A stretch of 64,000 bases of DNA. Origin: an uncultured Sulfolobales archaeon (lineage in GTDB: Archaea; Thermoproteota; Thermoprotei_A; Sulfolobales; NBVN01). The notes under the pieces are model-generated. The model ran no database searches. It had not been told where the DNA came from and saw only the letters and a program-made list of their open reading frames with translations. A program made the translations under genes and the position numbers. Position 1 is the first letter of the stretch; each line of letters opens with the position of its first letter. Shown here one piece after another: positions 13,457 through 59,880 of this stretch. Location of the stretch: the NCBI GenBank assembly GCA_938017505.1, contig CALIKV010000031.1:2511-66510 (forward strand), written 5' to 3'.

Positions 13457-13582
13457 TCAAACCGCCATACTCCCAACACACACCGTAGTTATAGACAACT
13501 AAGTTAATAAGCGTTCGGTAAGGTCCCAGGCCCTAGACTTCAGGCTTTACAAGCCTTCTCCCCGTTCTTCAGAGTGGTGTTT

Positions 13583-13684
13583 GGGTTCTGAGCTACGTAG
13601 TCTTTGATAGACTTACGTAACTCTTGAGATTCATCAGCCTAAAGCCCTCACGAGTTCATCAGGGCCCTCATCAGCCTCCTCCCC
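13583..13684 (-). mobile_element. IS200/IS605 tnpB 3'-end/omega-RNA-like element (copy A)
   Basis: About 80% identical by hand alignment to 33231-33328, with an exact shared 20-mer GTCTATCAAAGACTACGTAG; terminal hairpin followed by AGAAC. Confidence 0.7.
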
Positions 13685-13763
13685 ACCTACCCAGCTTACA
13701 TGACTCATGAGGGAAGACGCCAGACTTATTAACTCTTTGTTGATATAATCATGTGTGATGTAA

Positions 13764-31992: not shown

Positions 31993-33072
31993 TTGAGCGA
32001 CGTTCTAGTCATCGGCGCCGGACCTGGTGGATTGCTGTCTTCCCACGCACTCCTTAAGAAGGGGTTTAACGTCAGCATTTACGAGGAGCACAGCAATGTA
32101 GGTCTACCCAAACACTGTAGCGGTCTCGTGAGCAGCTACGTCGTTAACTCGCTAGGGCCCCTGGCTAGGGACCAGGTGTTAAGCAAGTTCACAGAGTATA
32201 GAGTCAGGGTGATTGAGAAAGGACTCATTCACGACCAACTAATACTGAGCTTCCGTGAACCCGTTTACCTCATAGACAGGGTTGGGTTTGAAGCTTCACT
32301 GCGTGAAGCCGTGGAGAGCTACGGCGGTAAGTTACGTTTAAGAACCCGCGTTACTGAGGCGAGGGTAGACGAGGGCTTATTGAGGACTAAGGAGGGCTGG
32401 GCGGGGGGCGACCTAATAATAGTTAGCGAGGGCGCCTTGAGAACGATCGTCAGGAAGTCACAGGTATGCGACGTGAGCGAGGCGTTAATAGGTCCTCAGG
32501 CCTTGGTTAGGCTGGGTAGAGTGAGTGATACTGTTGAGGTGATCACGTTCCCGCCGCTCGGGGTTAATGGATTCGGGTGGGTCATACCTGTCGACGATAA
32601 ACATGTAGTAGTAGGGTTAGTAACGAACTCTAAAGCGGCCGGACGCCTACTTAAGTACATCGTGCATAAGGTTGCTGGGGAGTTAAGCCCCTCGGACGTC
32701 GCTGTGAGAGAGTTCTTCGGAGGGCTCGTCCCAGTCGATAAGCCGTGCAGAGAACTTCTCGGCAGCAAGCACATCGTAGTCGGGGATGCTGCATCCATAG
32801 TGAAACCCCTGACTAAGGGTGGGCTGTACCCATTAGTCAAGGAGGTGGAGGCCCTGGAGACCTCCTTAAGGGGTGAGCACATCGATATTGACTTGTTCAA
32901 CGCTAGATTCGGTGAAACCCTAAGACTCCTCAACACACAACACGCAACTCTCAAAGCCATTCGTCGACTGGGGGGCTACCACAACCTGGTAAAACTAGCT
33001 GTTAAGCTGGGGCTAAGGGAGATCAAGTTAATGGATTACGACAGGTTAGTGTCTTTGCCAGCTGTTTCATGA
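31993..33072 (+). CDS. Geranylgeranyl reductase-family FAD oxidoreductase
   Basis: VIGAGPGG, HCSGLVS, IDR..FE, FGWVIP, VGDAA..KPLTKGG. Confidence 0.85.
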   Translation: MSDVLVIGAGPGGLLSSHALLKKGFNVSIYEEHSNVGLPKHCSGLVSSYVVNSLGPLARDQVLSKFTEYRVRVIEKGLIHDQLILSFREPVYLIDRVGFEASLREAVESYGGKLRLRTRVTEARVDEGLLRTKEGWAGGDLIIVSEGALRTIVRKSQVCDVSEALIGPQALVRLGRVSDTVEVITFPPLGVNGFGWVIPVDDKHVVVGLVTNSKAAGRLLKYIVHKVAGELSPSDVAVREFFGGLVPVDKPCRELLGSKHIVVGDAASIVKPLTKGGLYPLVKEVEALETSLRGEHIDIDLFNARFGETLRLLNTQHATLKAIRRLGGYHNLVKLAVKLGLREIKLMDYDRLVSLPAVS

Positions 33073-33123
33073 TGGAAAGACTTAAGCGTTGGTGATGTTG
33101 AGTGCTCTAGATGGATAAGATAA

Positions 33124-33328
33124 GTGCCCCGAAAAGAGCGCTCCACAAGCCTTCAGATTGAGGGTCTTTCCCCGCCCACGAAGCTCTTCGACGAGCACGT
33201 GAGGAGGTGGAAAGAGTCCTATCTGACGGGGGAGGTCGATGAAAGCTCCGACGGACTCGTGAGGGGCTTTAGGCTAGTGAATCCCAAGAACCACGCATGT
33301 CTATCAAAGACTACGTAGTTCTGAACCC
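33124..33328 (+). mobile_element. IS200/IS605 tnpB 3'-end/omega-RNA-like element (copy B, longest)
   Basis: Homologous to copies A and C; the overlapping 64-aa ORF (LQIEGLSPP.K..DE.VR...RLVNPK) resembles a TnpB C-terminal tail; terminal hairpin followed by TGAAC. Confidence 0.7.
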
Positions 33329-40534: not shown

Positions 40535-40823
40535 AGCGAGACGCCTAAAGGTCCTCGAGAGAGGAGTGGGTGCTGAGAGCATAGTCTCAGTCGCTGAATC
40601 CATTGACGCAGGCCATCATGAGGAATAACGCTAGTCCCTTCCCAACATGGAAGGATTCTGAGCTAGGTGCGGATTCATATTGCCCTATACCCGGCCCTTA
40701 CCTACAAGCGGGTTCATCGAGCTTAACTCTTTCAGGGAACCCGTGACTCATTTACACCTCGCATTTAAGTCTTTCGTCAGCAGTTTCAGGGTAAACAGCG
40801 AAGCATCGGAGGAGCCCTCGGAC

Positions 40824-40955
40824 ATGGGATTGTGGAAGCGCCCCGAATGCGGGATGGTTAACGCCTCGAAAGAGCCTCCACGAGCCCACCCTTCAGGTGG
40901 ATGGACTTACTCCAGCTGTGAAGGGGTGGGGAGGGGTCGACCTGACGGGGGTTGA
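40824..40955 (+). pseudogene. Possible decayed rubredoxin-like gene
   Basis: MGLWKRPECG...EPP..HPSGG resembles WKCxxCG...PP..CPxCG with three of four Cys lost. Confidence 0.4.
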
Positions 40956-41050
40956 TGAGGACCCCGATGAACCCGAGAGGTGGATTAAGCCTCATGAGCT
41001 CCAGGGCAAAGTGATTGATACCATCCATCAACCACTATGAAGCCTGAACC
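40942..41050 (+). mobile_element. IS200/IS605 tnpB 3'-end/omega-RNA-like element (copy C, diverged)
   Basis: CTGACGGGGG shared with copy B; GTTGATGAGGACCCCGATGAACCCGAGAGG aligns with copy A; hairpin AGTGATTGAT/ATCAACCACT then TGAAC. Confidence 0.6.
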
Positions 41051-41053
41051 TCG

Positions 41054-42340: not shown

Positions 42341-42753
42341 CGCACGTACGTTGCTGGCTTCAAGTCACTCCAGCTGAATCGAACTAAATGGGCATCGTCT
42401 AAAAGGACAGGGCTCAAATCCCCGGTGTTTGGAGCGCTGGTGTTTCCTCTTCTCCTAGACGACCCCCTATACGATTTAAACATCGCTAGGGCGTGAGTCG
42501 TAACTGTGTGAATGTGGTGTGAGAGATGTCGACCGTATCTAGCTCTAAGCCCTTTGTAGGCTGCCTCGTATAACTTCTTCCTAGAGGTTGCCTTCGATGC
42601 AATGGCTTCGTTCAGACGTTCTTTAAACGTGTTCGTACAAACTTTGAAGAGCTCTTCCAGCATTGCTCCCTGCTCCCCATCGGGCTTAAGCTTAGACCTA
42701 TGGGTCGTAGTCAACAGCGGCTTTCCCATCATTCCAGCCACTATATGAAACAT
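42337..42753 (-). pseudogene. tnpB: N-terminal fragment of IS200/IS605 TnpB
   Basis: TSRKKLYEAAYKGLRARY..LSHHIHT...ALAMFKSYR...P...VLLDD; no RuvC or zinc finger follows. Confidence 0.7.
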
Positions 42754-59810: not shown

Positions 59811-59880
59811 GTTCTGACCTGGCGTGACGAAGCTAATGCCAGGTCTTCCCCCTTTTCACGGAGGAGCTTTCGGGGCGACA
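59811..59880 (-). mobile_element. Short tnpB 3'-end/omega-RNA-like element (copy E)
   Basis: CCCCGAAAGCTCCTCCGTGAAAAGGGGGAA, then an 8-bp hairpin GACCTGGC/GCCAGGTC, then AGAAC. Confidence 0.55.

Follow-up and report, generated by a model that had tools for sequence, protein, structure and literature searches.

Short gene-less repeats in a Sulfolobales genome are probably non-autonomous IS607 derivatives carrying predicted omega-RNA templates

The DNA analysed here, called the window throughout, is a stretch of 64,000 nucleotides corresponding to C31:2511-66510 of genome G000, the MAG of an uncultured Sulfolobales archaeon (1.46 Mb in 46 contigs, 82% complete, 51% G+C). A first-pass annotation of the window had pointed to a dispersed family of omega-RNA-like elements, of which copies A, B, C and E were named. 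The features of interest are as follows, in window coordinates.

Copy A: 13585..13684, minus strand; a 5'-truncated right-end fragment with the tnpB-tail/predicted omega-RNA 3' module and no left end.
Copy B: 33054..33326, plus strand; a complete 273-nt non-autonomous element, with left end TTTGCCAGCTGTTTCATGATGGAAAGACTTAAG, the 3' part of tnpB and right end ...GTAGTTCTGAAC.
Copy C: 40773..41049, plus strand; a complete 277-nt element of a divergent subfamily, with left end TTCGTCAGCAGTTTCAGGG and right end ...GAAGCCTGAAC.
Copy E: 59811..59880, minus strand; a hairpin followed by CAGAAC, for which family membership is unsupported.
tnpB N-terminal relic: 42373..42714, minus strand; corresponds to amino acids 9-115 of the TnpB of relatives, the remainder of the gene being missing.

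The intervals first proposed for the copies were too narrow. Full copies in this genome span 130-280 nt, and the original coordinates took in the 3' third only; copies B and C begin well upstream, and A is a fragment. The description of A and B as differing at about 19 of 98 columns, nearly always by transitions, was close. They are identical at 79 of 97 aligned bases, and over 103 alignment columns there are 79 identities, 16 transitions, 2 transversions and 6 gaps. The substitutions between them are strongly transition-biased, at 16 to 2.

At the right end of copy A the sequence GAAC finishes at 13585, and a CC core occupies 13583-13584. A covariance model of the family (described below) matches 13585-13679 with 110.6 bits. 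The 5' flank resembles that of the sister genome G006 up to ...GGGAGAGGCTG, beyond which G006 has about 1 kb with two genes that are absent from G000. This point of divergence places the 5' break of copy A within about 13672-13690, in a stretch of microhomology, and the copy therefore keeps only about 95-110 nt of the right side. Comparison of the locus (about 13460-13700) with L084 of the sister genome (G006:C61:293-1344) shows that the extra 1 kb carries two opposite-strand frames of 174 aa and 130-137 aa; in G000 their place is taken by the A fragment and some 70 nt more.

Copy B is flanked by the core dinucleotides TC on the left (33052-33053) and CC on the right (33327-33328), and scores 99.2 bits with the covariance model. 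In a tblastn comparison its translation matches the end of the L063 TnpB (...LQMEGLPPSPKVFKDLMRGWSGFTLTGDEAYDSSNELERSLRLVNPKSYV) with 45% identity over 53 aa. It is inserted in the last codons of an upstream 361-aa host frame (window 33040-33070), which it replaces; the C-terminus of this frame reads ...DYDRLVSLPAVS in G000 and ...DYDRLVPTTP in G006, the new stop codon lying within the left end of copy B.

Copy C has CT on both sides (40771-40772 and 41050-41051). The full element is matched by nhmmer with E = 3e-28, and its 3' module by the covariance model with 30.1 bits (E = 1.4e-5). Within the element, the peptide CPECGMVNASKE is similar to the zinc ribbon of the L066 TnpB at its first CxxC (CSRCGMMNAPKG), and the right end resembles those of L054 and L059 (...GCTGAACCCC). 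No empty site for copy C was found in G006, where the matching sequence breaks off some 200 nt short of the copy.

Copies A, B and C are members of one family as had been proposed, but for copy E membership is unsupported. It gave no nhmmer match, and no covariance-model match even with filters off and E up to 10. All that copy E shares is a 38-nt similarity (87%) with C2:79803-79840, comprising the hairpin plus CAGAAC. This 38-nt hairpin, GACCTGGC...GCCAGGTCAGAAC followed by AG, is present at window 59811-59848 (minus strand) and at C2:79803-79840 (plus strand). It could be all that is left of a different right end of IS607 type, or else a hairpin resembling a terminator.

The family extends far beyond the window. 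Searches with blastn, nhmmer and the covariance model each go beyond chance, giving 13-25 further matches in the genome with a common ...CAGAAC boundary. An nhmmer profile of 20 copies gave 25 matches at E <= 0.01, which correspond to about 23 distinct copies since two are divided across contig ends. A loose regular expression for the 3' end found 18 places in G000, and 17 of these end in ...ACTACGTAGCTCAGAAC followed by unrelated sequence; the remaining one is spurious. The covariance model, built from the family and run on the genome and its relatives as had been suggested, recovered copies A, B and C together with further members.

Alignment of 330 nt upstream of the right ends revealed a shared, sharp 5' boundary, NNNNNN-AGCAGTTTCAGGGTGGAAAGACTTAA, with modular internal deletions between the two ends. 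A complete unit has a core dinucleotide (usually CC), a left end of about 32 nt (NNNNNN-AGCAGTTTCAGG...), the 3' part of tnpB from the zinc-ribbon CxxC to the C-terminal tail, and a right end ...CTACGTAGCTCAGAAC followed by CC. The left end appears to join the tnpB zinc-ribbon region directly after about 32 nt, a junction that was read from alignments rather than computed. The left-end motif RRCNGYYYCR is found about 130-280 nt upstream of the right end in 10 of 21 G000 copies, while by the same expression the other 11 have no left end. Sequence similarity among copies stops at GAAC(+CC). In 14 of 21 copies the bases directly after GAAC are CC. At the left end, five of 10 copies have CC in front and the other five a different dinucleotide; two copies have left and right dinucleotides that agree in neither letter. 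If this CC is the recombination core, the guides originally listed, which were taken to start immediately after GAAC, begin two bases too early.

In the 20 copies inspected, no intact tnpB lies upstream, and the 130-280-nt units hold neither a transposase nor a tnpB gene. The copies are 70-85% alike, several are truncated, and they fall into subfamilies: the A/B type, the type of copy C together with C2:14234, and the C14/C27 type with a different left end. This divergence of 15-30% and the division into subfamilies are in keeping with several source elements, not with a single burst. The units have no terminal inverted repeats: GTTGTCAGCAG... at one end and ...GCTCAGAAC at the other are not inverted copies of one another, and only the 2-bp core is common to both. 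IS607 elements lack terminal inverted repeats.

Where do the units come from? The first-pass annotation had proposed an origin in the 3' end of tnpB, and relatives bear this out: the intact tnpB genes at L059, L063, L066, L132 and L141 have a 3' end and right end that are colinear with the elements. A lack of similarity to tnpB 3' ends, the outcome named beforehand as refuting this origin, is not what is seen. Three tnpB-linked loci match the element profile (L066, E = 3e-31; L063, 4.5e-28; L059, 6e-6), and their 3' ends stop at the same place, reading ...CAGAAC|CC or ...CTGAAC|CC. A database TnpB fragment with both PF01385 and PF07282 (P0002) ends in ...GLCMSIKDYVAQNPPH, and its C-terminus, ...IKDYVAQNPPH, is the translation of the last bases of the element, reading through the right end. 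Pfam identifies a Cas12f1-like TNB domain in the L059 and L063 ORFs, and Resolvase and MerR HTH domains, of the IS607 TnpA type, in the ORF upstream of the L059 tnpB. Together these domains indicate that the parent is an IS607-family element. The left end points the same way. Homology to it (CC + 6 nt + A(G/A)CAGTT...) was checked in two full IS607 copies, and the motif, preceded by CC + 6 nt, is located upstream of the tnpA ATG in both, by about 50 nt in L060 and about 90 nt in L059. In the sequencing run that contains the window (run X1, record 3), a second contig has the same right end with another flank (ATGTGTAGAGTTTTATGATCCCAG...), as is found beside the tnpB-linked copy L066.

The contention that the genome has no intact tnpB holds for the assembled 82%, where only two relics are seen. 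One lies about 200-530 nt to the left of the window start (C31:1980-2316, minus strand). It is a remnant of tnpB codons ~250-372 with one frameshift and an intact right end, and is the only G000 copy with a recognisable RuvC-III/zinc-ribbon tail. This copy is preceded by a short frame ...CGLAMYRDVVAVLNLQMRGAGF, with 67% identity to two Thermoproteota TnpB fragments. The second is the N-terminal relic at window 42373-42714, which is 28-34% identical over 114-118 aa to the TnpB ORFs of L064 and L065 (tblastn, E = 1e-9 to 3e-8). Pfam finds no domain in the 145-aa frame that holds it. That frame is directly upstream of a 291-aa membrane-protein frame. Copy C lies 1.3 kb away, on the opposite strand.

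The mode of arrival of the units can be examined by comparison with G006, whose flanks are 86-92% identical, and which has precise empty sites for two copies. At copy B, G006 reads GTTAGTG-CC-TACAACC and G000 reads GTTAGTG-TC-[273 nt]-CC-TACGACC. At C5:21557 the sequences are GATCCG-CC-TTAGCG and GATCCG-CC-[203 nt]-CC-TTAGCG respectively. Both empty sites hold a single CC, and there is no duplication past the 2-bp core. Such precision indicates that the units were inserted in short, gene-less form, as transposition by a serine recombinase of the IS607 kind predicts. The two features that escaped the first-pass annotation are this insertion as short gene-less units at CC sites and the IS607 left end at the shared 5' boundary. 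The state of G006 could alternatively reflect precise excision there instead of insertion in G000. In the one DNA sequencing run that contains the locus, no contig skips the element; contigs drop rare variants, and so this carries no information on polymorphism. No RNA run is listed as containing the B locus.

These data bear on the possibility that the repeats are full-length IS607 copies that decayed at random, losing their genes by independent deletions. Two true relics do exist, at C31:1980-2316 and window 42373-42714, and a left end is missing from a number of copies (11 of 21 by the regular expression). Yet at least 10 copies share one junction between left end and tnpB, which would not be expected from independent deletions, and two copies are bounded exactly by empty sites as units of 203 nt and 273 nt. 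We therefore regard random decay of this kind as very unlikely. The first-pass annotation had offered, as one of two explanations, relics whose structure predates their decay. Of the two, this one agrees better with the data, covariation extending across the whole IS family including tnpB-linked copies, but the elements are not randomly decayed IS copies.

We conclude instead that the repeats are most probably non-autonomous, internally deleted derivatives of archaeal IS607 elements that carry omega-RNA templates, plus truncated fragments of these. We put the probability of this reading, which is drawn from the sequences, at a little under nine in ten. Given the lack of inverted repeats and of any target duplication past the 2-bp core, they do not conform to the strict definition of a MITE, and we describe them as MITE-like or PATE-like.

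Some indication of the target can be extracted from the left boundaries. The four bases ending in the left core are YGCC in four of 10 G000 copies, in three of four copies in relatives (L060, L059 and L048, not L036) and in both empty sites. From these small numbers, the data suggest a (T/C)GCC target for the family. The equivalent place at the right end reads AACC-C, a difference that would allow discrimination of self from non-self by analogy with the published IStron system. A targeting rule based on tRNA genes was considered and rejected, a tRNA being nearby in only three of 12 loci scanned. These are L002 (tRNA-Gly), L013 (tRNA-Val) and L010 (two, oddly called), where a tRNA is predicted no more than about 200 nt upstream of the repeat. 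The L048 copy, in G032, starts 5 nt after what appears by eye to be a tRNA-like 3' end, where ARAGORN makes no tRNA call.

No member of the family is matched by the covariance model in G006, nor in seven of the nine other genomes of the genus. It follows that either this lineage gained the copies or they were precisely lost in the others.

We turn now to the structure of the RNA that the 3' module would encode. The arms of stem 1 are as first described, AGGGCCCT/AGGGCTTT in copy A and AAAGCTCC/GGGGCTTT in copy B. In the terminal hairpin the double change from G-C to A-T between A and B is real, but B has in addition three mismatches (T.T, C.A and C.A, by eye) that are absent from A; within the covariance model 11 of 14 terminal-hairpin pairs are formed in B and all 14 in A. 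RNAalifold applied to a MAFFT alignment of 17 sequences predicted no pairs. We attribute this to indels placing the stems out of register, and so used a covariance model and the alignment based upon it. The model covers 96 positions of the 3' module with 22 pairs, and its structure was drawn on copy A. The score of copy A, in which both helices are perfectly paired (8 of 8 and 14 of 14), is therefore partly circular.

At E < 0.01 the model has 13 matches in G000, and matches are present in 14 of 52 genomes of the family. Structure statistics were calculated for 44 model-aligned sequences from 14 genomes. Paired cells amount to 78.7% in the 44 sequences, compared with 65.2% after shuffling. For covariation, the observed score of 0.389 compares with 0.189 in shuffles, none of 500 of which reaches it, and with at most 0.141 when the pairing partners are slid. 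The terminal helix is 87% paired, with double changes in all 14 pairs; helix 1 is weaker, at 64%. In reading these values it should be borne in mind that the alignment was fitted to the structure by the covariance model, and that in the parent IS these bases are also codons of the TnpB tail, which makes the conservation partly a matter of protein. The divergence of the subfamilies also fits the compensatory changes having arisen in working IS lineages.

A tnpB frame of at least 300 aa adjoins only four of the 44 model matches (L132, L063, L066 and L141), and orphan copies are thus the rule in this family. In G032, which is of the same family and another genus, there are 12 model matches (e.g. 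L130, L143 and L150), and the TnpB fragment P0001 matches nothing there at E <= 1e-10. At gathering thresholds Rfam has nothing in the window except three tRNAs, and with E up to 10 the B region gives one meaningless lncRNA match; the scaffold has no Rfam family.

The three CTGATGA motifs of copy A, noted in the first-pass annotation as being of K-turn/L7Ae type, are present as stated, and raise the possibility that the repeats have nothing to do with transposons and are small RNA genes of box C/D or another K-turn (L7Ae-binding) type. Yet there is no CTGATGA in B, the other copies vary at all three places, and in the parent gene the motifs coincide with codons of the TnpB tail (..DEL.. and ..LMNPK..). 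Nor does any Rfam family other than that of the three tRNAs reach threshold in the window, and there is none near it in the B region. The K-turn idea is left without support by these observations, and we consider an origin of this kind extremely improbable.

If the repeats are IS607 derivatives, their mobility and the use of any guide would depend on proteins supplied in trans. On the basis of published work on IS607 and IS605 elements, a TnpA serine recombinase acting in trans would excise the unit as a circle and insert it at (T/C)GCC. An omega RNA would form by folding of the unit's transcripts, with the DNA just to the right of CC as its 3' guide. By the same analogy, TnpB provided in trans would use this omega RNA to cut the vacated donor site, and recombination would then restore the element.

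G000 was searched for these proteins. PF01385 has no match, and PF07282 has none above its cut-off. Of 12 weak matches to the latter, the best eight were inspected singly and by eye resemble zinc ribbons of unrelated proteins (reverse gyrase, radical-SAM enzymes, TFS/RpoM-like proteins, a ribosomal protein and others) rather than TnpB. PF00239, the serine-recombinase domain of TnpA, has 0 matches in the assembled genome. For tblastn we used 46 translated ORFs of at least 150 aa from 14 loci of relatives, TnpB and TnpA ORFs included. These returned a remnant at C31:2033-2316, the relic at 42373-42714 (minus strand), a short piece in C26, and copy B. Taking the two Pfam models, a TnpB protein query and tblastn together, no intact TnpB was found in assembled G000. 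A candidate TnpA relic at C27:61639-61830 is a 65-aa similarity inside a 500-aa unrelated ORF, and was not counted.

Multi-copy IS elements are frequently missing from assemblies. Collapse of the assembly was considered as a way in which a full IS might be hidden, and discounted: the ends of C14/C27 and C39/C33 share a 124-nt overlap that lies in one further pair of copies, these again of about 250 nt with no tnpB. Most other contig-end repeats resemble, by eye, paralogous host genes. The contig ends C4_R, C6_R, C9_R and C20_L share at least 150 nt with the palindrome CCCCTCGCGAGGGG in both orientations, and represent an unassembled repeat. In the archaeal order of the host TnpB is common, 160 of 301 genomes matching fragment P0001 at E <= 1e-10.

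The flanks were examined as guides. It had been suggested that the sequences following GAAC be searched for second matches with a shared TAM. For 21 flanks compared with G000 by blastn-short this gave nothing of note, all matches being of 14-19 nt and at chance level. The best, 18 of 19 at C6:1775-1793, is preceded by GCGT, not CC or TGCC.

These results can be set against the proposal that the repeats are stand-alone guide-RNA genes, each with its own guide, used in trans by TnpB or a nuclease-dead derivative for a host function or for homing. The omega-RNA template is kept in most copies, as compared with only about 32 nt of the left side, and its secondary structure is conserved. The use of PATE-borne omega RNAs in trans is treated as plausible in the literature (PMC10055086), and with the MAG 82% complete a TnpB could be missing from the assembly. 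Against this, TnpB was sought by two Pfam models, a protein query and tblastn with 46 ORFs and not found. The 21 guides are without a second site, except for the 18/19 match that lacks CC or TGCC in front. The repeats are absent from G006 and seven of nine genomes of the genus, and so are not conserved host genes; finally, copy A is truncated and copy B has three terminal-hairpin mismatches. The first-pass annotation had offered such trans-used guide-RNA genes as one of its two explanations. With no TnpB found, no second-site guide match and no copies in the sister species, this now looks quite unlikely. Of the observations named there as jointly refuting function, absence of TnpB and of second-site guide matches are both seen in the assembled part of the genome.

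Absence of TnpA and of intact TnpB from the assembled genome makes mobilisation and guide use impossible with what is seen, though the MAG is 82% complete. Combined with the 70-85% likeness of the copies and their truncations, it makes it most likely that the units are stranded passengers. Within the reading of the repeats as IS607 derivatives, the copies in G000 are probably inactive in this sense and not working genes. The C5:21557 copy has a precise empty site, yet it possesses neither helix 1 nor the terminal hairpin's 5' arm. If it was inserted in that form, an intact omega RNA would be dispensable for spread.

The units might alternatively be live hitch-hikers. On this account the left end would bring the tnpA promoter that drives the omega RNA, and the TnpB of an unassembled IS607, a plasmid or a virus would cut the vacated (T/C)GCC sites, so that RNA-guided homing keeps transposons that have no protein of their own. 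Were this true, the disparity between about 32 nt retained on the left and 100-240 nt on the right would reflect selection for the guide scaffold. A bolder variant has some copies taken over as guides for a host process. We think it unlikely that the units are live hitch-hikers, and return to passengers derived from IS607 elements as the preferred interpretation.

The units share much with known elements. In the IS607 IStron of C. botulinum the core is strictly GG, the target TGGG is also the TAM of TnpB, the scaffold ends in UCGG, and the dinucleotide at the left junction is inherited from the donor, as reported in 10.1101/2023.11.20.567912. The same source reports minimal IS607 elements without tnpA or tnpB that are mobilised by TnpA in trans, and it and PMC6188088 indicate no duplication past the 2-bp core for IS607. 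Like these elements, the units have no terminal inverted repeats, a 2-bp core on both sides and no further target duplication. They also resemble them in the short target ending in the core (TGGG there, YGCC here) and in a scaffold that ends at or just before it (UCGG there, GAAC-CC here). They differ from the IStron in having a CC core on the tnpB-sense strand rather than GG, in their archaeal host and in the lack of a group I intron. The mini-IS of the IStron study were engineered, whereas the gene-less copies found here are natural.

A second parallel is provided by the PATE elements of the IS200/IS605 group, which 'often encode omega RNAs' for use in trans according to Meers et al. (PMC10055086). 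Like them, the units are protein-less, are bounded by the ends of a tnpB-bearing IS, retain the omega-RNA template and would need TnpA and TnpB from elsewhere. PATEs, however, belong with the Y1 transposase of IS605, with hairpin ends and single-strand transposition, where the present units belong to the serine-recombinase IS607 group.

In size and copy number there is a good match in the marine hyperthermophilic crenarchaeon Staphylothermus marinus, for which Anderson et al. (2009, PMC2678158) describe 14 copies of a MITE of about 260 nt tied to IS607 elements, with similarity to DNA beside single-ORF IS607 elements. Some of those copies are also truncated. They differ in their flanking inverted repeats and in that the similarity is reported upstream of transposase ORFs; the comparison is one of descriptions. 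The omega-RNA content of such elements was not known in 2009.

In ISDra2 and SisTnpB1 the omega RNA or reRNA of TnpB is a structured RNA made from the 3' end of tnpB and the right end, with the flank supplying its guide (10.1101/2023.03.06.531077). The units here match these RNAs in template position, conserved structure and a flank as putative guide. They are unlike ISDra2 and SisTnpB1 in that no cognate TnpB was found in assembled G000, the scaffold has no Rfam family and the omega RNA is predicted from sequence. A literature search of partial coverage found no description, as such, of omega-RNA-bearing IS607 MITEs in archaea.

The borrowing of TnpA and TnpB in trans is already in print, and the units bring no new mechanism. 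The two empty sites set the boundaries of the element to the base, and the suggested CC core and (T/C)GCC target/TAM would be useful in testing thermophilic TnpB proteins such as those of L059, L063 and L132. The interpretation accounts for about 23 intergenic repeats in this MAG, and for similar ones in 13 of 51 other genomes of the family, all of which are blank to gene callers and Rfam. If the reading is correct, these repeats are an archaeal, IS607-type addition to the few protein-less transposons in which an omega-RNA template is retained.
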